Positions 1 to 44,290 of a DNA stretch of 64,000 nt are shown in pieces. This DNA comes from an uncultured Alphaproteobacteria bacterium (GTDB lineage: Bacteria > Pseudomonadota > Alphaproteobacteria > RF32 > CAG-239): NCBI GenBank assembly GCA_944391615.1, contig CALXUE010000006.1, positions 17,665 through 81,664 on the forward strand. Reading direction: 5' to 3'. The translations under genes were made by a program, and so were the position numbers. Under the pieces are notes generated by a model, which worked only from the letters and a program-made list of their open reading frames with translations, did no database searches and was not told the DNA's origin. How positions within the stretch are numbered: position 1 is the first letter of the stretch; each line of letters opens with the position of its first letter.

Positions 1-673
1 AGTCGGCATTACAGGAATAGTTTTGACCCGTATAGACGGTTCTGCAAGAGCCGGAGCCGCACTTTCCATGCGGATGATATCCAAAGCACCGATAAAGTTT
101 TTGGGTACGGGCGAAAAAATTGATGAGATTGAAGAATTTCACCCCGACAGATTAGCCGGACGTATTTTGGGTCAAGGCGATGTTGTTTCGCTGGTTGAAA
201 AAACGATGGAAAAAATCGACCATGCCGAAGCTGAGAAGATGACCAACAAAATGCTCAAAGGTAAGTTTGACTTGGAAGATATGTTGTCCCAATTCCGCCA
301 AATGCAAAAATTAGGCAGCTTGGGTTCAATTATCGGGATGATTCCAGGGCTTTCCAAGTTCAAGAGCCAGATAGAGGCGGCGGGCGTCGGTGATAATCTT
401 GTCAAAAAGCAAGAGGCAATAATCTTGTCGATGACCAAACAAGAACGCCGCAATCCGGATTTAATCAAAGCCTCGCGCAAAAAGCGCATAGCGGCCGGAG
501 CTGGTGTAGAAGTTTCAGACGTGAACAAATTGCTCAAATCATATGAGCAAATGTCCACAATGATGAAAAAAATGGGCAAACTTGGCGGAATGAAAGCCAT
601 GGCGGCCCAAATGATGAGAAAAAATCCAATGGGAGGACTTCCCTTTGGAGGACAAAACAGATTTCCGTTTTAA
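1..673 (+). CDS. ffh: Signal recognition particle protein Ffh, C-terminal part (5' end lies outside the window)
   Basis: The ORF is open from the window edge. The translation contains the G-domain end (DVVSLVEKT) and the Met-rich M-domain ([16 protein letters not shown]); the conserved ffh-rpsP-rimM-trmD-rplS synteny follows. Confidence 0.85.
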
Positions 674-725
674 GCCATAAAACGAAAATCACAAACCATA
701 ATTTAACTTTAGAAAGGAAAATAAA

Positions 726-1118
726 ATGGCAGTTCGTATCAGACTTTCACGTGGCGGTTCAAAAAAACGTCCGTTCTATCGTATTGTAGCGGCAGACCAA
801 AGAGCTCCTCGTGATGGTAGATTCATTGAAAAATTAGGCACATACAATCCGTTGTTGCCCAAAGACCATGAACAAAGATTGGTCGTTGATGCAGAAAAAG
901 TCAAATCATGGATTTCAAAAGGTGCTCAACCGACCGAAAGATTGCAAAAATTGTTTGCAAACATGGGCTTGTGCGCTGCACCGGTAATTCGCAATCAGCC
1001 TAAAAAATCAGCTCCGAAAGCCAAGGCTGTTGAGAGAATGAAAGCTAAAGAAGAAGCTGCAAAAGCAGCAGCTGAAGCTACCGCTGCTGCAAGTGAAGAA
1101 AATTCTTCAGCAGAATAA
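726..1118 (+). CDS. rpsP: 30S ribosomal protein S16 with an Ala/Lys-rich C-terminal extension
   Basis: The N-terminus [24 protein letters not shown] is the canonical S16 signature. An RBS-like aaagg lies upstream and the synteny fits. Confidence 0.9.
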
Positions 1119-1145
1119 TAAAAACAAGAGATATGAGTTATTTTT

Positions 1146-1718
1146 GTGGATAAAACTGAACGGAAAACTTTAATGACAAAAGAAAAGCGTTTTTGTTTGG
1201 GCAAAATAGTCGGTGTACACGGCATCAAAGGCGAGGTCAAAGTAGCAAGCTTTACCGAGCCGGATACCAATATCGACAAATACGGTATAGTTGAAGATCA
1301 AACGGGAACCAAGCATTTTGAAATTAAAGTGACCGGACATTCAAAAGAGCTTTTGCGTATCAAGATAAAAGGCATTGACGACCGCACATCGGCGGAGGCT
1401 TTGAAGGGAACGGAATTTTACGTTTCAAGAGAGGTGATGCCCAAGCTGTCTGAAGATAGTTTTTATCTCGAAGATTTAGTCGGAATGAAAGTTATTTTGG
1501 CTGAAAACAAGGCAGAAGTTGGCAAGGTATGCGGTGTTTATAACTTTGGCGCGGGCGATATTTTGGAAATCAAAATAAGCGAGGGCGGCCAAAGAGAGAT
1601 GATACCTTTTACCAAGGCCTATGTACCGGAAGTTAATGTTGACGAAGGTTATATTATTGTAGAGTCAGTTCTGATGAACTATATTGACGACGACGAAAGT
1701 TTAAGTGATGAAGGTTAA
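1146..1718 (+). CDS. rimM: Ribosome maturation factor RimM (start may instead be the ATG at 1173)
   Basis: GKIVGVHGIKGEVKV is the RimM N-terminal motif. The ORF-track start is a GTG; the first ATG is at 1173. The position between rpsP and trmD fits. Confidence 0.8.
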   Translation: MDKTERKTLMTKEKRFCLGKIVGVHGIKGEVKVASFTEPDTNIDKYGIVEDQTGTKHFEIKVTGHSKELLRIKIKGIDDRTSAEALKGTEFYVSREVMPKLSEDSFYLEDLVGMKVILAENKAEVGKVCGVYNFGAGDILEIKISEGGQREMIPFTKAYVPEVNVDEGYIIVESVLMNYIDDDESLSDEG

Positions 1719-2400
1719 GGTATTCACCATATTTCCGGATATTTTCCCTGGATTTTTAGGATATTCATTAACCGGCAAAGCCTTAAAAGAAGGGTTGTGG
1801 TCAATAGAAACAGTAAACATAAGGGACTATGCGTTTGACAAGCATGGCTCGGTTGATGACACACCCTGCGGAGGCGGAGCAGGTATGATAATGAGGCCGG
1901 ATGTATTAGGCGCAGCCTTAGAGGCCAACACCCAAAAAGGCGAGAGGATTATCTGTATGAGCCCGCGCGGAGAGCCATTAACCCAGCGCAAAGTAAGAGA
2001 GCTTAGCCAAGCGGAAAGTTTGAACATAGTCTGCGGCCGATTTGAGGGCATAGATGAGCGAGTATTAGAGGCTTATCATATAGAAGAGATAAGCATCGGC
2101 GACTATATCTTGACCGGAGGAGAACAGGCGGCATTAGTTATGTTAGATGCGGTGATCAGAGTATTGCCTCACGTGTTGGGCAATGAGGAATCATTATCGG
2201 ACGAGAGTTTCGAGAACATATTATTAGAGCATCCGCAATACACAAGACCGGTAGAATGGTGCGGCCGAAAGGTGCCTGAAGTTTTGTTAAGCGGCCATCA
2301 TCAGAAAATAGACGAGTGGCGTCATCAAGAAGCCATAAAAATAACGCAATCAAGACGGCCTGACCTTTATCAAAAATATCTTGATTTGAAAAAGGAATAG
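1705..2400 (+). CDS. trmD: tRNA (guanine37-N1)-methyltransferase TrmD
   Basis: The SPOUT-family TrmD sequence (FTIFPDIFPGFL...GGGAGMIMRPDV) overlaps rimM by 14 nt and sits upstream of rplS. Confidence 0.9.
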   Translation: MMKVKVFTIFPDIFPGFLGYSLTGKALKEGLWSIETVNIRDYAFDKHGSVDDTPCGGGAGMIMRPDVLGAALEANTQKGERIICMSPRGEPLTQRKVRELSQAESLNIVCGRFEGIDERVLEAYHIEEISIGDYILTGGEQAALVMLDAVIRVLPHVLGNEESLSDESFENILLEHPQYTRPVEWCGRKVPEVLLSGHHQKIDEWRHQEAIKITQSRRPDLYQKYLDLKKE

Positions 2401-2440
2401 GTATATAAACAAAACCAAATAAAAACAAGGGAACAAAGAG

Positions 2441-2839
2441 ATGAACATTATAGAAAATTTAGAAAAAGAGCAAATCTCAAAGCTCACCGAAGGCAAAAAC
2501 ATCCCTAACTTTAAGCCGGGTGATACATTGAGAGTCCATGCAAAAGTAAAAGAAGGCGACCGTGAACGTATTCAGGTTTATGAAGGTGTTTGCATCGCCC
2601 GTAAGAATGACGGATTAAATTCTTCCTTCACAGTTAGAAAGATTTCTTTCGGTGAGGGTGTAGAAAGAGTATTTCCGCTGTATTCGCCAAATGTTGCCAA
2701 GATAGAAGTTGCTCGTATAGGTAAAGTACGTCGTGCAAAATTGTACTTCTTGCGCGCATTGCGTGGCCGTTCTGCTCGTATTGCTGATGATTTGTCTGCA
2801 GCAGCAAAAGCCAAAGACGACAACAAGTCAGCAGAATAA
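2441..2839 (+). CDS. rplS: 50S ribosomal protein L19
   Basis: The [11 protein letters not shown]...[26 protein letters not shown] pattern is typical of L19. It is the last gene of the trmD operon. Confidence 0.9.
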
Positions 2840-2863
2840 TAGGGCTTTAACAGTCAACATCAA

Positions 2864-2896
2864 ACACCATCGACCAAAGCCGATGGTGTTTTTTTG
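2864..2896 (+). terminator. Rho-independent terminator of the rpsP-rplS operon
   Basis: A hairpin ACACCATCG-loop-CGATGGTGT is followed by TTTTTTT. Confidence 0.7.
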
Positions 2897-3007: not shown

Positions 3008-4024
3008 ATGACCAAATATGCAATAGTCGGCGCGGAAGAAAGCGTCGGTCACGAGATTTTGAGCTTTATGGAAGAAGACGGTATTAAGGCGAGCAATGTT
3101 TTTGCTGTAGATGTTAATGCCCCGTTAGGAACGCAAGTCTCATACGGAGAAGATGCCGAGCTTGATGTCCATAACCTCGAGACATTTGATTTTTCTCAAG
3201 TAAATGCCGCAGTTTTCGCCACCACGGCGGAAGTTGCCAAACGCTTTATTCCCAAGGCGGTAAAAGCCAGCGTTAAGGTGGTTGATGCCACGGGCGCTAC
3301 ATTTGAGGATTCGGATGTTCCGATGATTATATCTGGCGTGAATGAAGCCGAAATTAAAAAAGCATCAAAAGGCTTGGTATCCATTCCATCGGCAGCGGTT
3401 ACACAAATGCTAATCCCGCTCAAAGCCGTGCATGATAAATACAAAATCAAAAGATTAGTGGTAAATTGCTATGTTTCCACCTCAATTTATGGCAAAGAGG
3501 CGATGGACGAGCTTTTTGACCAAACGCGTAAAATATTTATGAACGAGAGTTTGGTTGATAATCAAAAAGTTTTTAACAAACAAATTGCGTTTAACATCAT
3601 TCCGCAAGCCGGAGAATTTATCGGCGATGAAACTTCTTTTGAATGGGCGATGAATGCCGAAACCAAAAAAGTTTTGGGACCAAACATCAGAGTACACGCC
3701 AATTTTGCAGTTATACCGGCTTTTATCGGAACCGCGCAATATGTTAATGTTGAGTGTGCGGAAGAAATTGACGCTGATGAAGCGCGTAAATTGATGAAGT
3801 CCACCAAAGGGGTAGTCGTATTTGATAAAAAAGTAGACGGTGGATATGTTTCTTTGGTCGACGTGCAAGGTGAAGATGATATTTACGTTAGCCGCGTCAG
3901 ACAAGACGTTTCGGTTGACAATGGCATAAGCTTTTGGTGTGTTGCCGATAACTTGCATGTCGGAATGGCTAAAAATGCCTATGCAGTCATGCATGACTTG
4001 CTAAAATCAGCTGAAGAAAAATAA
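3008..4024 (+). CDS. Aspartate-semialdehyde dehydrogenase family protein, probably non-catalytic (active-site Cys position is Ala)
   Basis: The sequence is collinear with the roughly 340-aa Asd (asd2 type) as recalled: IAFNIIPQ matches IAFNAIPQ and the C-terminal block VSRVRQD...FWCVADNLHVGMAKNAYAV is shared. The NPNCST active-site motif reads IPSAAVT and the Gly-rich NAD(P) loop is degenerate (GAEESVG). Confidence 0.6.
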   Translation: MTKYAIVGAEESVGHEILSFMEEDGIKASNVFAVDVNAPLGTQVSYGEDAELDVHNLETFDFSQVNAAVFATTAEVAKRFIPKAVKASVKVVDATGATFEDSDVPMIISGVNEAEIKKASKGLVSIPSAAVTQMLIPLKAVHDKYKIKRLVVNCYVSTSIYGKEAMDELFDQTRKIFMNESLVDNQKVFNKQIAFNIIPQAGEFIGDETSFEWAMNAETKKVLGPNIRVHANFAVIPAFIGTAQYVNVECAEEIDADEARKLMKSTKGVVVFDKKVDGGYVSLVDVQGEDDIYVSRVRQDVSVDNGISFWCVADNLHVGMAKNAYAVMHDLLKSAEEK

Positions 4025-4057: not shown

Positions 4058-6523
4058 ATGAAAAAAATATTATTAAGCCTAATGGGATTGTTGCTTGTAT
4101 TGAGCCTAAATTTCTCAACACAAACGGCCTGCGCCCAAACAACGGCCGCAGAAGAAATTTTGAATTTTGCGCCCCTTGATTACAAAGAAATCAACAAACA
4201 GCTGAGTGAGATTGAAACAAAGCTGAAAAAGAACAAAACCTCGCCGGACGGGTTGGAAGAATATGTTCATGACCTTTCGCAGATGTCATCACAAATCTTA
4301 AATGACAAAAAAGAAGAAGAAAAAGAACTTCAGTTTGCGGAAAAAAGGCTTGAAGCTTTGGGAGAGGCTCCGCAAGATGGCAAAGAATTACAAGTCATAG
4401 CCGACAAGAGAAAACAGTTTACCAAAGAAGTAAATGAGTACAAAGCCCGAGTGTCAGAGGCAGATATTGCTTTGGCCAAAATAGATGAGCTTGACACGCT
4501 TATTTTGGAAATCCGCAACAATGCCTTGCTATCACATTTGTTAGACAAGCAAGCCCCGCTAATTTATCCGCAAAACTTTTTTAACAGCAACAAAATGTTT
4601 GTTGAATTGCTGATAGATATCATCACGTCGCCGGTTGATTGGTATAAAGAGCTCGGAGCCGAAAAGCAAAAAATCGTTAAGCAAAACGCACTTCCCGTAA
4701 CGGGAATTATCATTTTGGTTGCTCTGGTTGCCTTGTATTTAAGGGTATTTATTTTGCGGCATTTGGGCTATCACTACAACGGCAAAGAACCTGTGATACC
4801 ATATAGTCGCAAAGTATCGGCAGCATTTTTTGTTTCCATGGCATATGGCATCATTCCGGCCGCATTAATAGCGGCAGCTTTGGTTTGGATATATACTTCC
4901 AAATTTTTAACCATAGGATTTTTTGGCGTTGCCCTAAACTCATTTTTATACTTTTTATTTTACATAGTTTTGGGTCGAGCCCTTACGCGCGTAACATTTA
5001 CGCCGTATCATGAAGAATGGCGCCTGTTCAACATCTCAACCGACAAAGCCAAAAGGCTGACATCACGTTTTTACTTTTTCATAACACTGATATGTATCTG
5101 CAGTTATTTGAGTCACGTAGCGCTTAAATCAGAATATGGTATGGACCTGGTTTACTATATCAATGCGATATCTAATGCGGTAAAAGGGTTAAGTATTATT
5201 TTGATTGTAAAAGCGGCCTTCTGGGATGATAGCACATCGCCGGAAACACCGGATTCTTCGGAAGACGATGATGACGCCGCCTTAAAGCCGGAACAAAAAA
5301 TAACCCTACTGACAAGTGTAACATCCATAGCAGTATTTGCCTTGTCATTGTTTGGCTACCAAAAGTTGTCATCTTTTATCTTCAACAATGTCTTAATTTC
5401 CTGCATAATAATAGGCGCAATATTTATTGTTCACAAAGCAGTCATAGAGTTTCTGCACCATATTTTACTGATGCAGTTTTGGGTGAGAAATTTAAAATTA
5501 CGCCGCAAACTGATAGATAAAATTAATTTCTGGTTGACCTTGTGCGTTAATCCGATATTTATTTTGGTCGGCATATTTGCCTTATTGTCATTATGGGGCG
5601 TATCAACAGATTTGTTGTTGCAAAGTTTCAAAAAACTAATGTTTGGCTTTAAGGTAGGTGATGTAGAAATATCAGTTGTAGCCATAATCTTTAGTATTGC
5701 GGTGTTTTTTGGAGCCTTAACCATCGGAAAAATAATCAGAAACCGCATTGTAGAAAATGTACTGAGCCATATGGAAATGGATGAAGGCATAAAACACTCG
5801 TTAGCCTCAGGCATAAGTTTTGTAAATTTTGTAATAGCAGCGATTTTGGCGGTACTGATGATGGGCGGAAGTTTAGGAAATTTAGCCTTAATCGCCAGTG
5901 CACTTTCCGTAGGTATCGGTTTAGGTTTGCAAAATATCGTTAACAACTTTGTATCCGGCATAATTTTGTTGTTTGAACGCCCGATAAAGGTTGGAGATTG
6001 GGTCAAAATAGACGGAGAAGAAGGAAAGGTCAAGCAGATTAACATCCGCGCAACAGAGGTCGAAACATTTAATAAAATCAGCGTAATTGTGCCAAACGCA
6101 ACATTATTGTCAACCTCTTTACGCAACATGACACACGGCAACAACTGGCTGCGCTACCCGATAAAAGTCGGTGTGGCCTATGGCTCGGATGTCGATAAGG
6201 TCAAAGAAATTTTGTTGGAATGTGCCCTCGCGCAAAAAACAGTTTTAAGAGATCCGGCACCATATGTCTTGTTTCAAGACTTTGGTTCAAGTTCATTGGA
6301 CTTTGAGTTAAGAATATATGTGAAAAATATATGGGAAGGTTGGCGTGCTCCGAGTGAAATACGCTATGCGATAAACAAACGCTTTATAGAAGAAGGAATA
6401 GAAATTCCGTTCCCGCAGGTTGTCGTTCACCATGGTAGTGAAGTTTCAGCCGAAACCGAAACACAGTTCTATGCCGCCAAAAAGAAAGCAGCTTCGCCAA
6501 CAGCAAAAGAGAGTAATAAATAA
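4058..6523 (+). CDS. Mechanosensitive channel, MscK/KefA-like (large MscS family)
   Basis: It has a signal peptide, an N-terminal coiled-coil periplasmic region, multiple transmembrane segments and a C-terminal MscS core (GIGLGLQNIVNNFVSGIILLFERPIKVGDWVKIDGEEGKV). Confidence 0.8.
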   Translation: MKKILLSLMGLLLVLSLNFSTQTACAQTTAAEEILNFAPLDYKEINKQLSEIETKLKKNKTSPDGLEEYVHDLSQMSSQILNDKKEEEKELQFAEKRLEALGEAPQDGKELQVIADKRKQFTKEVNEYKARVSEADIALAKIDELDTLILEIRNNALLSHLLDKQAPLIYPQNFFNSNKMFVELLIDIITSPVDWYKELGAEKQKIVKQNALPVTGIIILVALVALYLRVFILRHLGYHYNGKEPVIPYSRKVSAAFFVSMAYGIIPAALIAAALVWIYTSKFLTIGFFGVALNSFLYFLFYIVLGRALTRVTFTPYHEEWRLFNISTDKAKRLTSRFYFFITLICICSYLSHVALKSEYGMDLVYYINAISNAVKGLSIILIVKAAFWDDSTSPETPDSSEDDDDAALKPEQKITLLTSVTSIAVFALSLFGYQKLSSFIFNNVLISCIIIGAIFIVHKAVIEFLHHILLMQFWVRNLKLRRKLIDKINFWLTLCVNPIFILVGIFALLSLWGVSTDLLLQSFKKLMFGFKVGDVEISVVAIIFSIAVFFGALTIGKIIRNRIVENVLSHMEMDEGIKHSLASGISFVNFVIAAILAVLMMGGSLGNLALIASALSVGIGLGLQNIVNNFVSGIILLFERPIKVGDWVKIDGEEGKVKQINIRATEVETFNKISVIVPNATLLSTSLRNMTHGNNWLRYPIKVGVAYGSDVDKVKEILLECALAQKTVLRDPAPYVLFQDFGSSSLDFELRIYVKNIWEGWRAPSEIRYAINKRFIEEGIEIPFPQVVVHHGSEVSAETETQFYAAKKKAASPTAKESNK

Positions 6524-7884
6524 TGTTGATAGAAGACTTAAAAAACAAAGCCATAATGTTGTGGGGCTTTGGTTCAGAAGGACAAGATGTTTTGCGCTTT
6601 CTGAAAAAACGCGGGCTTGATAATAAAGTTTGCATTTATAATGATAAAGAAACCAATGTTCCGGAAGAGTTTAAGTCCTATCCTGCATATAGCGGAGATG
6701 CTTTGGAGAATCTGCTGACAAACACAGATGTGATTATCAAATCCCCTGGGGTGAGCAAATATAAGGACGAGATAATATCAGCCCAAAAGCAGGGGGTAAA
6801 AGTTACCTCATCAACAGATTTGGTATTGTCTGAGATAAGACATAAATACCTCAAGCGCAAAATCATCGCCGTGAGCGGCTCGAAGGGCAAAAGCACCAGC
6901 GTGAGCGCCTTGTACCACATAATGACCAAACAAGGCTATAAAGTTGCTTTAGGAGGCAACATCGGCCGCCCGTTGATTGACTTGATAGATGATGAGTTTG
7001 ACTATTTGATAGCGGAGATTTCCAGTTATCAGGCATCAGACTTGTCGGTTTCTCCACATATTGCCATGTTTACCAATTTGTATTATGTGCATAGTGTCTG
7101 GCATTTGAGCCATGAGAATTATTGCCGAGACAAGCTGCACTTAATTGCCCATCAAGAGCAAGGAGATGTCAGCTTTGTCAATGCGCGCAATCCTGAGTTG
7201 ATGAAGTATGCGGCAGAAATAAAAAGCAAAGACATAAGATATTATGACACGTTGGGCGGCTTCCATGCAGAAGGCAAAAAGCTCTATAACAAAGAGGAAG
7301 AAGTTTTGGATATTAATAATCTCAAACTTTGCGGCGACCATAACTTAGATAATTTAGCCGGTGTATTTTCAATATTGGCCTATATCGGGGCTGATATCAA
7401 GCAGGCAGCCCAAGATATGGAGAGTTTTGAGCCGTTGGCCCACCGCTTGCAAAATGTGGCAACCAAAAATGGCGTGACATTCATCAATGATAGTATTTCA
7501 ACGGCACCGGAAGCAGCCTTAGGTGCAATGAAGAGCTTTGATGATAATATGGTTGTGATTTCAGGCGGAGAGGAAAACACACAAGATTATACGGAATATG
7601 CCCAATATGTAGAGAACAACCCCAAGGTTAAAATGGTGATAACCTTGTACCAGTGCGGCCCTAAAATCGCCGCCAAGATAAGGGAGATTGTGAATAGAAA
7701 AGACTTTTCTTTAGTAGAGGCAGAGAGCTTGGAAGAGGCGGTAAATATGGCTTATTATTGTTTGGCCAGATTGGGAGGGGGCAAAGTTTTGTTTTCGCCG
7801 ACATCACCGTCTTTCGGATTTTATAAAAACTTTATGGAAAGAGGTCAGCATTTTATTGACATTGTAGGTAAACTTGATGTATAA
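6523..7884 (+). CDS. murD: Mur ligase family protein, most similar to UDP-N-acetylmuramoylalanine--D-glutamate ligase MurD
   Basis: The N-terminal Rossmann-like motif (LWGFGSEGQDVLRFLKKRG) and the ATP-binding P-loop (AVSGSKGKSTS) are typical of MurD. The start overlaps the mscK-like stop (TAATG). Confidence 0.6.
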   Translation: MLIEDLKNKAIMLWGFGSEGQDVLRFLKKRGLDNKVCIYNDKETNVPEEFKSYPAYSGDALENLLTNTDVIIKSPGVSKYKDEIISAQKQGVKVTSSTDLVLSEIRHKYLKRKIIAVSGSKGKSTSVSALYHIMTKQGYKVALGGNIGRPLIDLIDDEFDYLIAEISSYQASDLSVSPHIAMFTNLYYVHSVWHLSHENYCRDKLHLIAHQEQGDVSFVNARNPELMKYAAEIKSKDIRYYDTLGGFHAEGKKLYNKEEEVLDINNLKLCGDHNLDNLAGVFSILAYIGADIKQAAQDMESFEPLAHRLQNVATKNGVTFINDSISTAPEAALGAMKSFDDNMVVISGGEENTQDYTEYAQYVENNPKVKMVITLYQCGPKIAAKIREIVNRKDFSLVEAESLEEAVNMAYYCLARLGGGKVLFSPTSPSFGFYKNFMERGQHFIDIVGKLDV

Positions 7885-7909: not shown

Positions 7910-7985
<76 letters not shown>

Positions 7986-8051
7986 TTTTTTCGTTGAGAG
8001 AGATAATAAGGGGAGCAAGAGTTTAGCTCCTTTTTTTGTAGAAGAAAAAAG

Positions 8052-8639
8052 ATGACAACAACTGTAAACGAGCAATATAAACTTTTGGGACGCAAGGTAG
8101 AGGATAAAAGGCAAAGTGAAGATTTTTATCCGACGCCGAGCTATGTGACCGAGGCATTGCTGGAATATCATCATTTTAGAGGCAAGATATGGGAACCGGC
8201 CTGTGGAGACGGCCGTATGGCAGAGGTTTTGAAAAAGAGCTATCAAGATGTTGAATGTTCGGATTTAATGGATAGGGGCTATGGCCAGTCAGGGGTAGAT
8301 TTTTTAAAATCAAACAAGCGCGTGGCCAATATAGTGACCAATCCACCATTTCAACTGGCATATGAATTTATAGAACAAGGCCTGAAATTGGCGGATGATT
8401 GCTTGGCTTTGTTACTCCCTATCAGATATTTGACGGGCAAGAAAAGGGCAAAATTATATGCCAAATTTCCGCCAGCCAAAATTATCGTGATACCGAACAA
8501 GGTCGATTTTTTGGGCTTTGGCTCACCGGCCATGGAGTTTGCATGGTTTGTGTGGAAAAGAGGCATCAAACAAACTACAATCGTCTGGGCAGACACCCAT
8601 GATGCAGATGTTAAACGAAAGAGAAAAAAAAAGGCATAA
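8052..8639 (+). CDS. Small phage-type DNA N6-adenine methyltransferase-like protein
   Basis: The 195-aa protein has a motif-I-like EPACGDG and a motif-IV TNPPF (the D/N-PP-F/Y of amino-methyltransferases). It is orphan, with no restriction-endonuclease partner, and lies 66 bp downstream of tRNA-Thr. Confidence 0.5.
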   Translation: MTTTVNEQYKLLGRKVEDKRQSEDFYPTPSYVTEALLEYHHFRGKIWEPACGDGRMAEVLKKSYQDVECSDLMDRGYGQSGVDFLKSNKRVANIVTNPPFQLAYEFIEQGLKLADDCLALLLPIRYLTGKKRAKLYAKFPPAKIIVIPNKVDFLGFGSPAMEFAWFVWKRGIKQTTIVWADTHDADVKRKRKKKA

Positions 8640-26629: not shown

Positions 26630-26741
26630 AATAAGTTGAAAAAGTAAACAAAAATTTAATCGATAAAGAAAAATAACTTGAGAAGAATAAAATTAGCAAA
26701 AAAAGATTGCCTAAACCCTTGTCAATCCTTGAAAATTTCTA

Positions 26742-26770
26742 TTTACAGCTTTTTATTTCTGTGCTATAAT
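26742..26770 (+). promoter_or_regulatory. Sigma70-type promoter of cassette 1 (TTTACA-17 bp-TATAAT) with an upstream CCTTG direct repeat
   Basis: The -35 TTTACA is at 26742-26747 and the -10 TATAAT at 26765-26770. The same 100-bp block is found at 39702-39799 and, inverted, at 35690-35788. CCTTGtcaatCCTTGaaaa lies at 26717-26735. Confidence 0.7.
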
Positions 26771-26806
26771 ACGAGTCGTGGAGATAAGTTGAAAGGTGTT
26801 TCGAAA

Positions 26807-27646
26807 ATGAAAAAACAAACTTTTTTGTTTTCAGCATGCAATGCTTTATTATGGCTTTTTAGTTATAATAATGTATATGCTGATGTTTCAAATTTCAAGA
26901 CAACAGACAAGGATTTTTTGACCAACACACAACACACACAGTTTTTGTCTGATGCCTCCGGCTTATCTCCCGATAAGTTTATCAAAGTTGCACAAGTTTG
27001 CTGGATTATGGACACCGGTGAATGTTTTGGTGTTAACTTTATTTCCGCTGACAGAGATTTGAATAATCCCTCTAACCCTGAAGATTATGTTCCCAAAGGG
27101 CCGGCTGATTGTATTGAAGAAGGTTATACCGTTACCAACTGTCCCAATGGCTATAAGGGCAACAAAGAATGTTTGTATGCCAAAGGGTATTATGCCGAAT
27201 GTATTGAAGACTGCCCCAGTAATTATAAACAATGTGAAGAGCCTTATCATGGTGTGGGGCAAGTTTGCGGCGATGGTTATTATGCCAGTTGTCAATGCGA
27301 CTACTGTGACGGATATTCCTACAAAAAAGAAGATATTCCCGATGGCTATGTGGCAGATGGTGAGCCTTGTAATTCATGCAATGGTCCAAGGTATAAAATC
27401 AAAGTCAACCCTTGTGAGGGTTATCAAGACTGCGGCTCGATGGGCGGCAAGGTCGGGGCAACATCCTGCTTGTCGGGCACGAATATGATGTATAGCGAAT
27501 GCAAACCTTGCCCGAGCTTAGGGGAATATGACACCTGTCCGCCGTGTTCGGTCTGTTCTTATGAAGAATGTTCCAACAAATATTATGTGACGGGTTGTGC
27601 TGCGGGCTGTCAAGATTACTGCGACTACTGCGCTTTTGAACAATAA
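26807..27646 (+). CDS. Cassette 1 gene A: secreted, extremely Cys-rich repeat protein of unknown family
   Basis: The start is at MKKQTF, downstream of the conserved promoter. It has a signal peptide (..NNVYA/DV) and more than 40 Cys in repeated CPxxY / GYYAxC / CxxC spacing. Paralogs lie at 34843-35682, 39803-40681 and 63826 to beyond 64000. Confidence 0.75.
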   Translation: MKKQTFLFSACNALLWLFSYNNVYADVSNFKTTDKDFLTNTQHTQFLSDASGLSPDKFIKVAQVCWIMDTGECFGVNFISADRDLNNPSNPEDYVPKGPADCIEEGYTVTNCPNGYKGNKECLYAKGYYAECIEDCPSNYKQCEEPYHGVGQVCGDGYYASCQCDYCDGYSYKKEDIPDGYVADGEPCNSCNGPRYKIKVNPCEGYQDCGSMGGKVGATSCLSGTNMMYSECKPCPSLGEYDTCPPCSVCSYEECSNKYYVTGCAAGCQDYCDYCAFEQ

Positions 27647-27691
27647 TCAGGGAAAGAGAGAGAAAGTTTAATTATTATTTAGGAGGAGAAA

Positions 27692-28489
27692 ATGAGAAAG
27701 TTTTTATTATATTCATCGGCTTTGGCGTTAGGTTTGAGCGGGGTGGCTGAGGCGGCCTGCATCCAAACACCAACGTGTTCATCTTTGGGCTACACCTCAA
27801 CTTCATCTTGCACCGGCGGAACCAAATGCCCCTTTGGCAATTACTGGAACTGCACCGCAGCTGACTTAAATAATAAGATTACGGAACTTGAAACCCAAAT
27901 CACTGAACTCAAAAAAGAAATGGTAATGTCTAACTGCCAAGTTGGTGATGTTTTGTATTCGGATATGACGATTAATCCTGATTATGTTAGTGGCAAAACA
28001 CCAATCGGCGTGGTATTTGATTGTCGAAAAAAATTAGCGATAGGGTTGGAGCAATCTGACGAAGAGTGGTCAATTACCGATGATTTTGATGTTCCTGGGG
28101 TTGAAAATATTACAGATACAACGAAGGTTTTGCAAGATATGGATGGAAAAAAGAATACGAGTACAATATTAGCCTATTGTAAAACAAAAGGGAAGCGTTG
28201 TCCGGCGTTTGAGTATGTGAATAGTTATAAAACAGAAGGAACTCAAGCAGGGGATTGGTACTTACCATCTATGGGAGAATTATATGCGATATATGGTAAT
28301 ATGGGTGTATTGAATGTTACGTTAATAAAAATAGTGGCAACAAGGCTTGTTGCAAGTTACTATTGGTCTTCTTCCGAGTATTCAAGCACCGACGCGTGGA
28401 ATTTGAGGTTCAGTAGCGGTAACGTGAACTACAACGATAAGTACCACAGTGCCGATTTCGGTTACGTTCGCCCAGTCCTAGCTTTTTAG
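27692..28489 (+). CDS. Cassette 1 gene B: secreted protein with a Cys-motif N-module, a coiled coil and a DUF1566/Fib_succ_major-like C-terminal domain
   Basis: It has an RBS GGAGGAG and a signal peptide (GVAEA/AC). The N-module is AACIQTPTCSSLGYTSTSSCTGGTKCPFGNYWNC, followed by a KITELETQITELKK heptad. The C-terminus PIGVVFD...AGDWYLPSMGELYAIYGN...YYWSSSEYSSTDAWNLRFSSGNV...YVRPVLAF resembles the Lcl C-terminal/DUF1566 pattern. Confidence 0.75.
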   Translation: MRKFLLYSSALALGLSGVAEAACIQTPTCSSLGYTSTSSCTGGTKCPFGNYWNCTAADLNNKITELETQITELKKEMVMSNCQVGDVLYSDMTINPDYVSGKTPIGVVFDCRKKLAIGLEQSDEEWSITDDFDVPGVENITDTTKVLQDMDGKKNTSTILAYCKTKGKRCPAFEYVNSYKTEGTQAGDWYLPSMGELYAIYGNMGVLNVTLIKIVATRLVASYYWSSSEYSSTDAWNLRFSSGNVNYNDKYHSADFGYVRPVLAF

Positions 28490-33981: not shown

Positions 33982-34797
33982 CTAAAAAGCTAGGACTGGA
34001 CGAACGTACTCGCTAAGGTAGTTCTTATAGTAGTAGTCCACGTATCCGTCACTGAACCTCAAATTCCACGCGAAGTCGCTTGAATACTCGGAAGAAGACC
34101 AATAGTAATTTGCACCAAGCCTTGTTGCCGCTATTTTCCCTAACGCAACATTTAACACACTCATATTACCATATATCGCATATAATTCTCCCATAGATGG
34201 TAAGTACCAATCTCCTGCTTTTGTTCCTTCTGTCTTATAGCTATTCACATACTCAAACGCCAGACAATGCTTCCCTTTTGTTTTACAATAAGCCAATACC
34301 GTACTTGTATTCTTTTTCCCATCCAAGTCTGCTATCGCTAATGTACGGTCTGTTATATTATCAACCCCTGGAACATCAAAATAATCTGGATATGACCAAT
34401 GTTGTTGAGATTGCTCCAACCCTATAGCCAATTTTCCACTATGGTCAAACACCACGCCGATTGGCGTTTTTGACACAACATAATTTGAATTGCACGTCAT
34501 ATCCGAATACAATATATCTCCGACCAAACAGTTGGCGGTTGAAACTTCTTTTTTGAGTTCAGTGATTTGGGTTTCAAGTTCCGTAATCTTATTCGTTTGT
34601 TCTGTAATCTTATCATTTAAATCGCTTGCGGTGCAGTTCCAGTAATTTCCGAAGGGGCATTTTGTTCCACCGGTGCAAGATGAGGTTGAGGTATAACCCA
34701 AGCTTGAACAACTCGGGGTCTGAATACAAGCCGCAAGTACAGTGTCGCTAAAACCAAACACTGCCAAAGCCGATGAATATAATAAAAACTTTCTCAT
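33982..34797 (-). CDS. Cassette 2 gene B (paralog of 27692-28489, about 80% aa identity)
   Basis: It has the same N-module (AACIQTPSCSSLGYTSTSSCTGGTKCPFGNYWNC), coiled coil and DUF1566-like C-terminus ending YVRPVLAF. RBS GGAGGAG. Confidence 0.75.
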   Translation of the reverse strand: MRKFLLYSSALAVFGFSDTVLAACIQTPSCSSLGYTSTSSCTGGTKCPFGNYWNCTASDLNDKITEQTNKITELETQITELKKEVSTANCLVGDILYSDMTCNSNYVVSKTPIGVVFDHSGKLAIGLEQSQQHWSYPDYFDVPGVDNITDRTLAIADLDGKKNTSTVLAYCKTKGKHCLAFEYVNSYKTEGTKAGDWYLPSMGELYAIYGNMSVLNVALGKIAATRLGANYYWSSSEYSSDFAWNLRFSDGYVDYYYKNYLSEYVRPVLAF

Positions 34798-34842
34798 TTT
34801 CTCCTCCTAAATAATAATTAAACTTTCTCTCTCTTTCCCCGA

Positions 34843-35682
34843 TTACTGTTCAAAAGCGCAGTAGTCGCAATAATCGGCACAACCTGTGGCGCAACCCGTC
34901 ACATAATATTTGTTGGAACATTCTTCATAAGAACAGACCGAACACGGCGGGCAGGTGTCATATTCCCCTAAACTCGGGCAAGGCTTGCATGCGCTATACA
35001 TCATATTCGTGCCCGATAAGCACGAGGTTGCTCCGACCTTGCCGCCCATCGAGCCGCAATCTTGATACCCCTCACAAGGGTTAGGCTTAATTTTATACAC
35101 CTCGCCGTTGCAGGATACGCAAGGCGCCCCGTCCGCCACATAGCCATCGGGAATATCTTCTTTTTTGTAGGAATAGCCGTCGCAGTAGTCGCATTGACAA
35201 CTGGCGTAATAACCATCGCCGCATTCTTGCCCCACACCATGATAAGGCTCTTCACATTGCTTATAATTACTGGGACAGTCTTCAATACATTCGGCATAAT
35301 ACCCTTTGGCATACAAACATTCTTTGTTGCCCTTATAGCCATTGGGACAGGTAGTAATGGTATAACCTTCTTCAATACAATCAGTCGGCCCTTTGGGAAC
35401 ATAATCTTCAGGGTTAGATGGATTATTCAAATCTCTGTCAGCGGAAATAAAGTTAACGCCGAAACATTCACCGGTGTCCATAATCCAGCAAACTTGCGCA
35501 ACTTTGATAAACTTATCGGGAGATAAGCCGGAGGCATCAGACAAAAACTGTGTGTGTTGTGTGTTGGTCAAAAAATCCTTGTCTGTTGTCTTGAAATTTG
35601 AAACATCAGCATATACATTATTATAACTAAAAAGCCATAATAAAGCATTGCATGCTGAAAACAAAAAAGTTCTATTTTTCAT
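34843..35682 (-). CDS. Cassette 2 gene A (paralog of 26807-27646, about 95% aa identity)
   Basis: It is collinear with 26807-27646 and nearly identical, including the signal peptide and Cys spacing. It lies downstream of the inverted copy of the promoter block. Confidence 0.75.
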   Translation of the reverse strand: MKNRTFLFSACNALLWLFSYNNVYADVSNFKTTDKDFLTNTQHTQFLSDASGLSPDKFIKVAQVCWIMDTGECFGVNFISADRDLNNPSNPEDYVPKGPTDCIEEGYTITTCPNGYKGNKECLYAKGYYAECIEDCPSNYKQCEEPYHGVGQECGDGYYASCQCDYCDGYSYKKEDIPDGYVADGAPCVSCNGEVYKIKPNPCEGYQDCGSMGGKVGATSCLSGTNMMYSACKPCPSLGEYDTCPPCSVCSYEECSNKYYVTGCATGCADYCDYCAFEQ

Positions 35683-35718
35683 TTTCGAAACACCTTTCAA
35701 CTTATCTCCACGACTCGC

Positions 35719-35747
35719 ATTATAGCACAGAAATAAAAAGCTGTAAA
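35719..35747 (-). promoter_or_regulatory. Sigma70-type promoter of cassette 2 (inverted copy)
   Basis: The reverse complement gives TTTACA (35742-35747), a 17-bp spacer and TATAAT (35719-35724). The CCTTG direct repeat lies at about 35755-35775 on the minus strand. Confidence 0.7.
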
Positions 35748-35846
35748 TAGAAATTTTCAAGGATTGACAAGGGTTTAGGCAATCTTTTTTTGCAAAAAAA
35801 ACGCCCGAGTTTTATCCTCGAGCGTTATAAAAATTATAAATTATGT

Positions 35847-39802: not shown

Positions 39803-40681
39803 ATGAGTAAGCGGAAGTTTATCTTGTTGGCTTCGTTGTCTGTATGCGCGTTTGTTGCGGAGACGGCGCAAGCCGATATTTCTTCTTCAATGAATTATAT
39901 ATTCAAAGATGTTACACTTTTCAACACACTTCACACACATTTATCTTTGAATGGAGCTTTATCTCCACAACAAGTTTCAAAAAATCAAAAATCTTTGGTT
40001 AAGGTAGCCCAAGTCTGCTGGATTATGGACACGGGAGATTGCGCCGGTTTGGACTTTGTGAGTTCGGATATTAATGGTTCGGGCAATAAACCACCGAGCG
40101 AATATGACAAGAAAGGCCCTGAAGATTGTATCAAAGAGGGTTACACCATCACCAACTGTCCGGATGGGCAAAAAGGTGACGGAGAATGTATGTATGCCAA
40201 TGGCTACTATGCCAAATGTATTCCCGACTGCCCGTCATCTTATACCACCTGCACGTCGCCTTATAAAGGGGTGGGGCAAGTTTGTGGGGATGGCTTGTAT
40301 GCGGAATGTTGTCAAGACACTTGTCCGGCAGATTACAAATACACCTTAGGTTCAATTCCTGACGGATATGAGGCGGTTGGAGAACCTTGTGTGCAATGCA
40401 ACGGTAATAACACCACGGCAGTCAAAAAATACAGAGTGAAAGAAAAAGACTGTTCCGGATTTTTGGATTGCGGGACTTTAGGCTGTGAAACAGGGGCAAC
40501 GACTTGTCAATCAGGAAGCGTGGTTAAGTGTTCAAAATGCAAACCTTGCCCGAATTTGGGCTCAGAAAGTGAATGTCCACCATGCACAGTCTGCAGCTTT
40601 GAGGAATGTTCAAACTTATACATCGTCAGCGGTTGCAAAACAAATTGTACCGATTATTGCAACTACTGCGCTTCTGAATAA
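39803..40681 (+). CDS. Cassette 3 gene A (divergent Cys-rich paralog)
   Basis: It has a signal peptide (AETAQA/D), the conserved KVAQVCWIMDTGDC block and the same Cys-repeat architecture, ending CNYCASE. Confidence 0.7.
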   Translation: MSKRKFILLASLSVCAFVAETAQADISSSMNYIFKDVTLFNTLHTHLSLNGALSPQQVSKNQKSLVKVAQVCWIMDTGDCAGLDFVSSDINGSGNKPPSEYDKKGPEDCIKEGYTITNCPDGQKGDGECMYANGYYAKCIPDCPSSYTTCTSPYKGVGQVCGDGLYAECCQDTCPADYKYTLGSIPDGYEAVGEPCVQCNGNNTTAVKKYRVKEKDCSGFLDCGTLGCETGATTCQSGSVVKCSKCKPCPNLGSESECPPCTVCSFEECSNLYIVSGCKTNCTDYCNYCASE

Positions 40682-40722
40682 GGGCAAGAGAGAAAAGTTT
40701 AATTATTATAACGGAGGAGAAA

Positions 40723-42003
40723 ATGAAAAAATTTTTATTATATTCAACCGCATTCGTAGTTTTGAGCGGGACGGCAAATGCAGCCTGTATCCAAACCCCG
40801 AGTTGTGCCAGTTTGGGATATGACAGTAACTCAGCCTGTGAAAATGGTCTAAAATGTCCGTGGGGCAATGCTTGGTATTGCAAAGTCGGAGAATTGGAGG
40901 AAGCAGTCAACAATGCCGAAAAAGCAAAAACTTGTATCCCCGGAGCCGTTTTTAACTCCGATCGTAGTTGTACCGAAAAACAAGAACTTGGCAAAATTCC
41001 GATTGGTGTTGTTGTCTATGCTGACGGCAAAGGCCACGGCCAAGCCATGGCTTTAGAAAAAATAGATATTGTAGCATTAAACAATTATTTAAAAACTGTT
41101 AAATACACAACTTTTTCTAAGTATCCAAATAAATATGCAGTAGAGTATCGTTACACTTATGCTAGACACTCAAGTGGAGATGAAGAATATGTAAAATGGC
41201 CTCAAGAAAAATGTATATCAACAGATGATATATATGTTAAAGGATTGAAAGAGTTTTCTAATTTAGAAGAAGCATCGCTTGAATTTGATAGTAAAAACAT
41301 TACAGCTCAAATACAACAATCACTAAACACAAATAATGCTAAGATTCAACAATATTTTAATACGGCGTCTGCATTAAATTCTATTGTGAATGAATCTAAA
41401 ATTATGGAGTGTAGTCGTTCTAATGTAGTAGGCTATCCATGTTATCTTTACGAGGTTAGTAATAAATCGGAATACTATTGGTATTCAGGTGATGCATCCA
41501 CATCTTTGCTTAAAACCATACAAAAAATAAAAGCTTATAAAACAACAGGAACCTCAGCTGGAGATTGGAATATGCCTGCCCCTGGAATATTTAATTCTAT
41601 AAAAGTAAATTTTGAAAAGATTAAAGAAACTTATGCCTTACTTAATAAAAATTTTAACTATAATCAAATGGTTACAATGGGAATGTATATCAAAAATGCA
41701 GGAGAAAAGACAAATAAAAAATGTACGTTTATGGATGCTAAATTTACGAGTAATGATGGTGATATAGATAAAAATTATCAAAGTTATCAATATGATTCAA
41801 GTTATTCAAGTCCATCAGACACGTACTCTCAGTATTACTATTATTATCTAATACCAACAACAGATTTCAATACTAAATTACCATCTGTTTCAGCGGAAAT
41901 AACATCATATCCAAAATACATAGCATTTTCAAATTCTGCAACGTATGGTACAGCAACCACATCATCAGGAGGAAAGCAAATCTATCCTGTAATTGACTTT
42001 TAG
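40723..42003 (+). CDS. Cassette 3 gene B (divergent, extended paralog with an N/Y/S-rich low-complexity C-terminal region)
   Basis: The N-module AACIQTPSCASLGYDSNSACENGLKCPWGNAWYC and the block PIGVVVY...GTSAGDWNMPAPGIFNSI align to the other B genes. The C-terminus is replaced by a Tyr/Asn/Ser-rich sequence. Confidence 0.65.
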   Translation: MKKFLLYSTAFVVLSGTANAACIQTPSCASLGYDSNSACENGLKCPWGNAWYCKVGELEEAVNNAEKAKTCIPGAVFNSDRSCTEKQELGKIPIGVVVYADGKGHGQAMALEKIDIVALNNYLKTVKYTTFSKYPNKYAVEYRYTYARHSSGDEEYVKWPQEKCISTDDIYVKGLKEFSNLEEASLEFDSKNITAQIQQSLNTNNAKIQQYFNTASALNSIVNESKIMECSRSNVVGYPCYLYEVSNKSEYYWYSGDASTSLLKTIQKIKAYKTTGTSAGDWNMPAPGIFNSIKVNFEKIKETYALLNKNFNYNQMVTMGMYIKNAGEKTNKKCTFMDAKFTSNDGDIDKNYQSYQYDSSYSSPSDTYSQYYYYYLIPTTDFNTKLPSVSAEITSYPKYIAFSNSATYGTATTSSGGKQIYPVIDF

Positions 42004-42064: not shown

Positions 42065-44272
42065 TTATTCTTCATCCTCATCGGCATCGTCGCCGTTATC
42101 TTCTTCAGGATTATAGTCAATACCGAGTTTGGCTAACATATCTTCATTAATATCTTCACGTTGCGCCACAATCCAATCCGGCACGCAAGGCGCAGGCGGT
42201 AAAGCGGCCAAAGCTTTCATTTTCTTATCCAAATACCAACGTGGAGAATCAGCCATAATCGGCCTGTCAATGGAACCTTGCATCAACACCACTTGCTTAA
42301 GCATAGGCAAGCTTAAAAGTTGCGTAGTCGAAATAACTGACGTTCCCTGCAATTGGTAAGACACATTTTTAGAAAATGGATTCGTACCTTTACCCAATCC
42401 CTCTGTTTTTGAAAAAGATGTTGTCTGCACCGTCTTGTTACCAATCATTTTAGAGAAACGTTGCGCAGTCACCTCGTTGTTTTGAGAAAGAATAACTTTA
42501 CAAGCCGTGGTAGAAATCACGGTTTCCAAATCATCCTTACCATACTTTCCGGAAATTTGCCCCAAGTCTTGCCCGATAAGCAAATACGACACTTTTTGAC
42601 CACGACCGACGGCCGGTCCGTCAATAATAGCGCGAAGCTTAGGCATTTGCGGAAACTCATCCAGCACAAACAAAGCAGGGAACGGCCCCATCACGCCATC
42701 AGACTTGTTGTGGAATTTTGGCGGATTCGCAATCAAATAAGATGACATCAATTCAATAAACGTTCCCGAAATAATGTTCAATGCGCGCGCATCAACCTGG
42801 TTAACGGACAAATAAACCGAAATCGGCTTCCACTCACCAGTCACAGGGTCTTTCATTCCGCGCAAATCCTTAAATTGCAAATCAGAAAAACTCGTGCGCG
42901 AAACCACAGCCGCGTTTTTGAAAATACCAATACCGGCCAAACCGGTAGACAACACGGAACCACGCTCTTTATCCGGCATGGCGCTGAGCTGGCTGAGTTC
43001 AACAATACACCGTTGTGAGTAACCAAACTTTCTGGCTTCGGTAATGGCTTCTTCCAACATATTGCGCATCGGGTCAGCCATAGCGGCCATCTGGTCGCCC
43101 TCATCCAAGCGGCGCTTAATTTCTTCCGATTGTTTGATTTGAGCTTCGGTAATCCATTCCAAAATCATGGCCAAGCAGGCTTCATGCCCAATCCATTTCT
43201 CCGGCAACAAAGCCCATGAGCCAATGGGCAAATAGTTATCAATGGTGAGTCTGCCGGCTCTCAGATCTTGAATAGCTCTGGCCGCCATTGGATCACGCAT
43301 CTCAAGATAATAGCTTTCCAACACACGCTTATCTTCATCATCCATTTTACCTTCATAAATACGCCCGATAAAATAGTCATTAGCGCGTGCTTTTTCACAT
43401 TTAAAAGACACAAAGTGAATAAATCCTGTCAAAGCGGCACGACCTGTTGTTGACCAGTGCGGGTCTGCTCCCCCCTTAGGCTCTTCCACCAAAATATTGC
43501 ACATAGAGTCAATATACATATCTCGGTCAGGTCCCGGAGCAGGCAATGCATTAGGCGAAAGCGGGTTCCAACTCGGATAATAAATACCTTCAGCCGGATT
43601 GTCTTCCGCACCCCAGTTAATCACAAATACAGGGCCGTCTTTGGCACGAGCTCCGGTTGTGGAATAGCACAACTCAGGCTTTGGGTCGTTTACGATAATA
43701 CTCAGGCCGTGTGAGTTAAAAATAGTCGGAATCACCACGCCGGCAGTTTTACCGGTACCCGGAGGCGCACAGCAAAGAGTTGCCAGAGTTTCTTTAAGCA
43801 TAAGCATTTTGCCGTTAAACTTTCCGACCACTTGACAAAAGCCGTCAAAACCAAGCAACGGCATTTTTTTAATATCTTTTTCAGTGGCCAATCTTGCCGC
43901 ACCATGAATATTAGATTGAAAACGATAAGGATTTGTCAAAAAACCAATCGTCAATCCCACCGGAAAGCTTATAAACGGCAACACCGGCACCCACAAACTG
44001 ACCGAAAAAGGTCCGTTATAATGAGTCAGTTGTTGAAACCAACTCCAATAACGAGAAGTCAAATAAGAAGGGTCGTTAAAAACAGCCTGCAAAAAGCGAT
44101 AAGCAACATCCATGCTTGTTTTGGAAATTCCGGCCCCGATAAGATAACCGATAGGCAGCGAAAAAACAGCCAAAAAAATCGTCAACACCAAAGTGACAAT
44201 AGCGGAAATAACCATCCACTGCACCGCATTGTCATATTCTTCCCATTCTTCACCGCGTTCTTCAGACATCAA
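42065..44272 (-). CDS. Type IV secretion coupling protein (VirD4/TraG/DotL family ATPase)
   Basis: It has N-terminal transmembrane helices and the T4CP signature HGAARLATEKDI (GSARWA-like). Walker A is CCAPPGTGKTAGVVIPT and Walker B/DEF is LFVLDEFPQMPKL...IGQDLGQI. The C-terminal tail is acidic (DNGDDADEDEE). Confidence 0.8.
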   Translation of the reverse strand: MMSEERGEEWEEYDNAVQWMVISAIVTLVLTIFLAVFSLPIGYLIGAGISKTSMDVAYRFLQAVFNDPSYLTSRYWSWFQQLTHYNGPFSVSLWVPVLPFISFPVGLTIGFLTNPYRFQSNIHGAARLATEKDIKKMPLLGFDGFCQVVGKFNGKMLMLKETLATLCCAPPGTGKTAGVVIPTIFNSHGLSIIVNDPKPELCYSTTGARAKDGPVFVINWGAEDNPAEGIYYPSWNPLSPNALPAPGPDRDMYIDSMCNILVEEPKGGADPHWSTTGRAALTGFIHFVSFKCEKARANDYFIGRIYEGKMDDEDKRVLESYYLEMRDPMAARAIQDLRAGRLTIDNYLPIGSWALLPEKWIGHEACLAMILEWITEAQIKQSEEIKRRLDEGDQMAAMADPMRNMLEEAITEARKFGYSQRCIVELSQLSAMPDKERGSVLSTGLAGIGIFKNAAVVSRTSFSDLQFKDLRGMKDPVTGEWKPISVYLSVNQVDARALNIISGTFIELMSSYLIANPPKFHNKSDGVMGPFPALFVLDEFPQMPKLRAIIDGPAVGRGQKVSYLLIGQDLGQISGKYGKDDLETVISTTACKVILSQNNEVTAQRFSKMIGNKTVQTTSFSKTEGLGKGTNPFSKNVSYQLQGTSVISTTQLLSLPMLKQVVLMQGSIDRPIMADSPRWYLDKKMKALAALPPAPCVPDWIVAQREDINEDMLAKLGIDYNPEEDNGDDADEDEE

Positions 44273-44290
44273 TCAATCCTTTAAGCACTT

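Follow-up and report, generated by a model that had tools for sequence, protein, structure and literature searches.

A catalytically dead homologue of aspartate-semialdehyde dehydrogenase adjoins an MscK-like channel gene in uncultured gut Alphaproteobacteria

We analyzed a stretch of 64,000 nucleotides (nt) of DNA from an uncultured alphaproteobacterium (GenBank assembly GCA_944391615.1, contig CALXUE010000006.1, positions 17,665 to 81,664), referred to here as the window, and focused on an open reading frame (ORF) whose 338-residue product derives from aspartate-semialdehyde dehydrogenase (Asd) and which we call pseudo-Asd (Table 1). An earlier reading of the sequence alone (the original prediction) had placed the gene directly downstream of the rpsP-rplS genes, and it does lie directly 3' of rpsP-rimM-trmD-rplS (726..2839); genes for an MscK-like mechanosensitive channel and for MurD follow it. 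A terminator-like hairpin after rplS suggests that a separate transcription unit begins with the Asd-like gene. The predicted fold has an energy of -15.7 kcal/mol (z -4.8), and none of 200 shuffled sequences was equally stable; the hairpin is absent from the listing of a consensus terminator scan. Consensus scanning found no + strand promoter in the 168-nt spacer between rplS and the Asd-like gene, in a scan that also missed the rplS hairpin. No terminator was predicted between the Asd-like and channel genes of the window. With the hairpin after rplS, no terminator before the channel and a murD start that overlaps the channel stop, the three genes look like one unit, and we infer an apparent operon.

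Table 1. Features at the pseudo-Asd locus and elsewhere in the window.
Feature	Coordinates	Strand	Details
ffh (partial), rpsP, rimM, trmD, rplS	23..2839	+	ORFs and translations; Pfam labels on identical contig L001
Terminator-like hairpin after rplS	2862..2895	+	11-bp stem, 8-nt loop, then U-run
Asd-derived pseudoenzyme gene	3008..4024	+	ATG start; 338 residues; AAAGGA ribosome-binding site upstream
Codon for E11	3038-3040	+
Codon for A129 (Cys position)	3392-3394	+
Codon for T242 (His position)	3731-3733	+
Other key codons: F99, V156, A214, V235	within 3008..4024	+
MscK-like mechanosensitive channel gene	4058..6523	+	821 residues; Pfam PF00924, PF21082; starts 33 nt after the Asd-like stop
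murD	6523..7884	+	TIGR01087 296.7 bits, above cut-off 212; start overlaps channel stop by 1 nt
tRNA-Thr(CGT)	7910..7985	+	ARAGORN; marks the downstream end of the apparent three-gene unit
tRNA-Thr(CGT) and 195-residue ORF	7910-8639		tRNA 26 nt after murD; ORF with NPPF motif, no Pfam match
Two-gene cassette	26678-28489	+	gene 2 (27692-28489): C-terminal Lcl_C/DUF1566
Two-gene cassette	33982-35760	-
Two-gene cassette	39803-42003	+	gene 2 (40723-42003): no Pfam match
Two-gene cassette	62901-63947	-
VirD4/TraG type IV secretion coupling protein, then several large ORFs	42065-48657	-	PF02534, PF12696, PF10412
Protein-kinase-like ORF	57977-60034	-	685 residues; sub-threshold PF00069 match, E 7e-4; C-terminal transmembrane helix

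The original prediction had described the protein as Asd-like over its whole length, and this description held in database and structure comparisons. Both Pfam domains matched above their cut-offs (PF01118 Semialdhyde_dh, residues 5-119, E 1.9e-14; PF02774 Semialdhyde_dhC, residues 138-316, E 4.2e-30), and the top match among solved structures was Asd2 of V. cholerae (2QZ9, E 1.2e-48), aligned end to end over residues 4-329. The USG-1 homologue of P. aeruginosa (2HJS) matched with an E value of 8e-35 and 28% identity. An AlphaFold2 model built from an alignment of 43 family members had a predicted local distance difference test score (pLDDT) of 87.9 and a predicted template modeling score (pTM) of 0.85, and Foldseek superposed it on 2QZ9 with a template modeling score of 0.90. 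The two-domain architecture of Asd, an N-terminal Rossmann domain followed by a catalytic and dimerization domain, is thus present. Among the family models, PRK14874 was passed with a score of 267.7 (cut-off 223), whereas the score for TIGR01296 (241) fell below the cut-off of 324. Scores were also below the cut-offs for PRK05671 (173 against 284) and PRK08040 (158 against 273), which we take to be models of USG-type proteins. We considered membership of the USG-1 family and rejected it on account of these two scores and of the greater closeness to Asd2 than to 2HJS.

Functional residues were assigned from alignments to three solved Asd structures, of which the alignment to 2QZ9 was free of gaps. 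Against 2QZ9, the catalytic Cys motif NPNCST reads IPSAAVT, with Ala 129 at the Cys position; the catalytic His motif FYGHAE reads FIGTAQ, with Thr 242 at the His position; and the loop that binds nicotinamide adenine dinucleotide phosphate (NADP), GATGAVG, reads GAEESVG, with Glu 11 inside the loop. The original prediction had noticed all three changes, and the formal alignment confirmed them and added the loss of two Arg, a Gln and a Lys. The phosphate/substrate Arg is replaced by Phe 99 and the second Arg by Val 235, the Gln of YQSxSGAG by Val 156, and the Lys by Ala 214. The cofactor segments ASxRS and FSAG have become VDVNA and FATT, altering the canonical S, G and N positions. Glu 212 is the sole substrate-site residue retained, and it is invariant across all examined homologues, live or dead, where we call dead those without the Cys/His dyad.

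We then scored eleven functional columns in about 130 loci and in 150 library representatives, the latter being the best obtained when 1.84 billion cluster representatives were searched exhaustively. The family of the window protein corresponds to one 50% cluster, whose nearest relatives outside it are at most 43% identical, and about half of the 150 representatives lack the dyad. The Cys position holds A, P or S in each of the 120 closest homologues; across the dead clade the His position is T, S, C, A, E, N, D or I, and the Gln position V, T, I, M, L or N. No intact Cys/His dyad was found elsewhere in the sequence: the alignment of 43 family members contains no invariant Cys, and its only invariant His, His 230, does not coincide with any known catalytic position. 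Within the channel-linked dead clade described below, some lineages (L114 and L134-L139) retain the second Gly of GxxGxxG, with all catalytic residues gone. Judged by these replacements, the 338-residue protein should be unable to form the thioester intermediate or to bind NADP canonically, and hence would not be an Asd.

The original prediction further held that the protein is conserved although catalytically dead, and this was borne out in related taxa. The best 120 database sequences, 60-99% identical, are all intact ORFs without both Cys and His, and come from gut and rumen metagenomes and metagenome-assembled genomes labeled 'Alphaproteobacteria bacterium' or 'Azospirillum sp.' The identical 338-residue protein occurs on five independent contigs, which, together with the uniformly dead homologues, argues that the replacements reflect neither chance nor sequencing error. 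Alignment of 43 sequences 60-100% identical to the window protein showed 74 invariant columns. Measured against a 96%-identical allele (L097), the ratio of nonsynonymous to synonymous substitution rates (dN/dS) of pseudo-Asd was 0.029, compared with 0.040 for rplS, 0.037 for trmD, 0.061 for the channel gene and 0.071 for murD. In nearly all lineages pseudo-Asd is also better conserved than either of its two downstream neighbors, the channel and MurD; identities to the window for pseudo-Asd, channel and MurD were 76, 59 and 66% in L012 and 64, 51 and 58% in L004. The gene is therefore not decaying, and is under strong purifying selection comparable to that on a ribosomal protein gene. Enzyme homology, loss of the catalytic residues with the fold kept, and purifying selection together support its classification as a pseudoenzyme.

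These data bear on the view that the ORF is a decaying relic, kept for promoter or translation-coupling signals that serve the channel gene and murD. As such a view would have it, the apparent operon begins with this gene, and in some lineages the stop codon of the gene overlaps the start of the channel ORF. The low dN/dS, the invariant residues, the intact ORFs in more than 30 lineages and a protein better conserved than MurD all speak against it, and we regard it as scarcely credible. In its pure form, as a cis-acting relic, it is effectively excluded, since a role in cis would not constrain the amino-acid sequence in this way.

A comparison of the columns of the dead clade with those of 66 live alphaproteobacterial Asd sequences showed what has been kept. 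Sixty-two positions, which form the structural core, are conserved in both groups. A further 85 positions, each conserved to 90% or more among the live alphaproteobacterial enzymes, have changed or become relaxed in the dead clade. Sixteen residues are conserved in the dead clade only, and several of them (G110, V131, L135, P137 and Y161) lie near the former active or cofactor site. These sixteen residues, and the GxxGxxG retained in some lineages, would suit a remodeled cleft that binds a ligand or has acquired a new activity, for instance as a sensor of metabolites or an enzyme that needs no cofactor, with the adjacency to the channel gene reflecting co-regulation only. Positions in the former pocket are, however, hydrophobic and vary from lineage to lineage, the reverse of what a conserved ligand site would show, and neither the lack of an invariant Cys nor the location of His 230 favors new catalysis. 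We therefore consider this explanation quite improbable.

The genomic setting of the dead gene proved to be highly specific. In a scan of loci from one genome per GTDB species, which contained at least 15 dead and at least 65 live asd loci, the channel gene was immediately downstream in 14 of the 15 dead loci listed, and within 10 kb in none of the 65 live ones. When lineages were defined as clusters at 90% identity and the evaluable ones counted, the dead Asd-channel pair was present in 32 of 33 lineages of the dead clade. The two genes are separated by -17 to about +220 nt overall; in most lineages the range, from the same lower limit, ends at about +40 nt, and in several the genes overlap. 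More divergent members of the clade carry the channel gene too (P0122, P0165 and P0140, with identities of 43, 36 and 34%), some with overlapping stop and start codons. A reverse scan of JGI metagenomes that started from the channel found 30 loci in which a full-length orthologue has an Asd-like gene just upstream, and all 30 of these are dead. Thus, the dead Asd near-invariably adjoins a gene for an MscK-like channel, which is the specific new finding of this analysis. The pairing is specific to one clade and not general for dead Asd, since other dead clusters lack it: P0126 precedes a DapB-like ORF, and P0130 lies in an unrelated context. The P0126 locus (L095, 380-1839; GC content 54%) keeps the GGG loop, has Pro in place of Cys and Glu in place of His, and overlaps the downstream ORF by 4 nt; the N-terminus of that ORF is DapB-like, and some dead Asd genes thus occur in contexts of the diaminopimelate (DAP) pathway.

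The channel encoded in the window is predicted from its sequence to combine an MscS core and a cytoplasmic vestibule with multiple transmembrane helices, a coiled-coil region in the periplasm and a signal peptide. Among solved structures E. coli MscK is the closest to it (7UW5, E 6.5e-47, residues 538-799), and it matched the core of the NCBIfam MscK model with 221 bits, below the cut-off of 991. We found 24 channel positions specific to the linked orthologues, many of them cytoplasmic; being inseparable from phylogeny, they were not used as evidence. In L134-L139 a predicted cytoplasmic loop of the channel contains a long insertion rich in Gly, Ser and Thr. In a strain 96% identical to the window (L098, 11047-13005), the channel ORF is about 170 residues shorter (652 residues), in frame, and abuts murD; this ORF, uncalled by the source pipeline, could be an allele with a natural deletion, or else an error of assembly.

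The gene that follows the channel offers another candidate partner. The Asd-like protein could scaffold or regulate MurD, or MurL together with MurD, as the remnant of a link between DAP supply and a Mur ligase. murD follows the pair with overlapping stop and start codons in the window and is found downstream of the channel gene in 12 of the 23 lineages that could be evaluated; one divergent lineage has genes for an Asd-like protein, a channel, a MurL epimerase and MurD in a row, and in these genomes murD is away from the dcw cluster, its usual position. Yet murD is missing nearby in about half of the lineages, against a channel gene in nearly all of them, and the channel gene always stands between the Asd-like gene and murD, so that a MurD partner appears unlikely to us. 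In the divergent lineage (L092, 6001-11894, of the P0140 lineage), the next genes after dead Asd and channel encode a MurL-like UDP-MurNAc-L-Ala-L-Glu epimerase, which scored 423 bits with NF041275 against a cut-off of 700, and a ligase of the MurD family. MurD2/MurL constitutes an alternative route for D-Glu incorporation in L092; the window has murD and no murL nearby.

We next considered where the dead gene came from. Live asd lies immediately 3' of ffh-rpsP-rimM-trmD-rplS in L026, L027, L030, L031 and L034, and 3.5-8 kb downstream of this cluster in about 15 other Rhodospirillales-like genomes; taken together, the cluster is upstream of a canonical asd in L026-L031, L033 and L034, among others. 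Housekeeping proteins identify L026, L030 and L031 as the nearest relatives of the window (RplS 75-76%, Ffh 61-62% identity), and live Asd of their type is abundant in human gut metagenomes. Ten further independent contigs (L179-L188, including GCA_900768465.1) have live asd directly after rplS. The same post-rplS site holds a dead gene in the window and in L015, L023 and L099. Since relatives have live asd at this site, the dead gene is its positional descendant and occupies the ancestral asd locus, and these observations suggest that it arose by conversion of asd in place. Upstream of the dead gene, rplS is found in 4 of 27 lineages, and prfA, hisS or DUF1796 elsewhere. The channel-linked dead clade has a single origin: it was monophyletic in 100 of 100 neighbor-joining bootstraps and nested among alphaproteobacterial Asd, in trees of which only the monophyly of the clade was used, because long-branch attraction among the dead sequences makes the exact sister group unreliable.

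The position of the gene does not support the word 'paralog' as used in the original prediction, since the dead gene sits where relatives carry their live asd. A true paralog would mean that an intact second asd elsewhere in the genome, duplicated or horizontally acquired, supplies aspartate semialdehyde and made catalysis dispensable in the copy at the original locus. This scenario concerns origin and is compatible with a role as a channel partner. Gram-negative peptidoglycan normally requires meso-diaminopimelate, so that total loss of Asd would be costly; pseudoenzymes usually arise after duplication; and closely related gut lineages have live Asd of the alphaproteobacterial type in abundance. 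On the other hand, we found no second Asd homologue either within the 64-kb window or among about 60 related loci, taken with as much as 10 kb of flanking sequence, a search of low power, and phmmer against all ORFs of the window and about 190 loci returned one Asd homologue per locus. The ancestral site is held by the dead gene, and NCBI accessions of dead and live proteins never fall in the block of one genome; the nearest live and dead accessions, MBQ8630535 and MBQ8346438, are about 284,000 numbers apart and thus represent different genomes. Motif scans of about 30 related loci for DapA, DapB, DapF, LysC and MurE, also of low power, gave chance matches only. The host probably belongs to RF32, an order of gut bacteria, and there to the family CAG-239. 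This order has been described in one paper as comprising genome-reduced, low-capacity specialists with fewer than 2000 genes, and if the host belongs there, auxotrophy is conceivable; the literature that we found on RF32 provided this context of genome reduction and no data on DAP. On balance, we see this paralog scenario, with its second, intact asd, as a close call that leans slightly against it.

We propose that pseudo-Asd is a non-enzymatic cytoplasmic partner of the MscK-like channel, converted from asd at its original locus, and we hold the chances of this proposal to be evenly balanced. An ancestral alphaproteobacterial asd after rplS would have been the source of the gene. In an ancestor of this clade of uncultured gut and rumen Alphaproteobacteria, catalysis may have been lost and a gene for an MscK-type channel joined to it, after which the two genes would have changed position in the genome together, in many cases along with murD. 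Its product would be a soluble accessory of Asd fold, acting as a regulatory, assembly or stability factor made from the same transcript as the channel. Selection as strong as that on a ribosomal protein gene, and a pairing kept through genome rearrangement, make a channel partner the best supported of the readings. The 'regulatory or binding role' put forward in the original prediction is plausible and is narrowed by the linkage to one type of channel; such a partner would probably be co-transcribed with the channel gene, bind the channel physically and perhaps affect its gating.

Several points weigh against this proposal. An interaction between pseudo-Asd and the channel is inferred from gene linkage alone. 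One lineage, L025, has no adjoining channel gene; it belongs to a 75% cluster whose other members carry one. Channel orthologues of 37-41% identity occur without an Asd-like gene, so that the channel family in general needs none. The 30 paired loci in metagenomes were found by way of the channel and are a biased count, and all paired loci fall in one clade, so their adjacency could in part be inherited synteny and not selected coupling. MscS-family entries in the PDB have seven chains, forming a heptamer, while Asd is a dimer, and a simple stoichiometric complex is not obvious. We know of no soluble partner for any MscS-family channel, and a literature search for one found none; the papers found on a mechanosensitive channel together with a semialdehyde dehydrogenase concern ectoine clusters, which is no more than a lead, and no ect genes are near the pair. 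Finally, the second Gly kept in L114 and L134-L139 makes nucleotide binding possible in some lineages. A bolder version of the proposal, which we think doubtful, combines two claims: that pseudo-Asd is an obligate cytoplasmic subunit or regulator of the MscK-type channel, and as such the first soluble partner described in the MscS family, and that the clade has no live Asd and depends on external diaminopimelate, lysine, threonine and methionine, although Asd appears in the annotation of its genomes.

These results have practical consequences for annotation. PRK14874 accepts pseudo-Asd and public records name it 'aspartate-semialdehyde dehydrogenase'; metabolic reconstructions would therefore wrongly credit these widespread and uncultured gut Alphaproteobacteria with a key step towards lysine, DAP, threonine and methionine. 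The locus also offers a natural case of an enzyme of an essential pathway turned into a pseudoenzyme in place: sister lineages that share a habitat have the live or the dead version at one and the same chromosomal site. The conserved and sometimes translationally coupled gene pair suggests that an MscS-family channel may have a dedicated soluble partner.

The window has other features of note. The tRNA gene after murD is followed by a 195-residue ORF whose NPPF motif is typical of N6-adenine DNA methyltransferases, and an integrated element may have its border here. The window also contains repeats of a two-gene cassette (Table 1). Its first gene, present in three copies, encodes a Cys-rich secreted protein of about 300 residues with no Pfam match, and its second, in four copies, a secreted protein, of which two copies were scanned. 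The N-termini are near-identical among copies, and the cassette looks like an expanded surface or adhesin family. The large ORFs that follow the VirD4/TraG gene are of low complexity, acidic or Lys-rich, and belong to no obvious family. The 685-residue protein-kinase-like protein adjoins several unannotated membrane proteins.

Dead homologues of Asd are already a known kind, represented by the USG-1 branch with E. coli Usg and P. aeruginosa 2HJS. According to a 2025 review of aldehyde dehydrogenase superfamilies, all sequences of the USG branch and some of the Asd2 branch lack the catalytic residues, and nothing more is known of them (PMC12041015). Our search for 'pseudoenzyme' together with Asd found this paper only, and a search for USG-1 together with Asd found none. 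Pseudo-Asd resembles USG-1 proteins in having an Asd fold without catalytic residues, but its origin is independent, as its clade is nested in alphaproteobacterial Asd and nearer to 2QZ9 than to 2HJS. In addition, 2HJS retains GxxGxxG and the Cys, both of which pseudo-Asd has lost, and the genomic context differs in that pseudo-Asd precedes a channel gene. With enzymes of the Asd2/asd_B type (TIGR01296), pseudo-Asd shares the two-domain fold and the length, and it is 32% identical to 2QZ9 and 41-46% identical to alphaproteobacterial Asd. It shares the post-rplS site with the alphaproteobacterial enzyme of close relatives and keeps the motifs IAFNxxPQ, SRxRxD and WxVxDN. Unlike live Asd, it is without the Cys, the His, two Arg, the Gln, the Lys and GxxGxxG, and its gene is linked to a channel gene.

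The channel of the window has in common with E. coli MscK (KefA, 7UW5) the MscS core, the cytoplasmic vestibule, extra N-terminal transmembrane helices and a periplasmic N-terminal domain, and is shorter, with 821 residues against 1120. To our knowledge, no Asd-like gene accompanies mscK in E. coli. Partners with a Rossmann-type dehydrogenase fold are familiar from other membrane proteins that carry ion fluxes, namely KefF and KefG with KefC and KefB, Kv-beta with Kv channels, and TrkA/KtrA. Those partners generally bind nucleotides or are active, and their interaction is experimentally established, whereas pseudo-Asd has a dismantled cofactor site and is connected to its channel by linkage only; none of those systems is known to involve the MscS family. 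Conserved operonic linkage to a channel gene, by which accessory subunits of channels may be recognized, is seen for pseudo-Asd in all evaluable lineages but one. Pseudo-Asd and its channel may thus be analogous to KefF with KefC or to Kv-beta with Kv channels: in each of the known systems the partner is encoded beside a membrane ion-flux protein and acts on it, and pseudo-Asd would likewise act on the channel that its gene adjoins.

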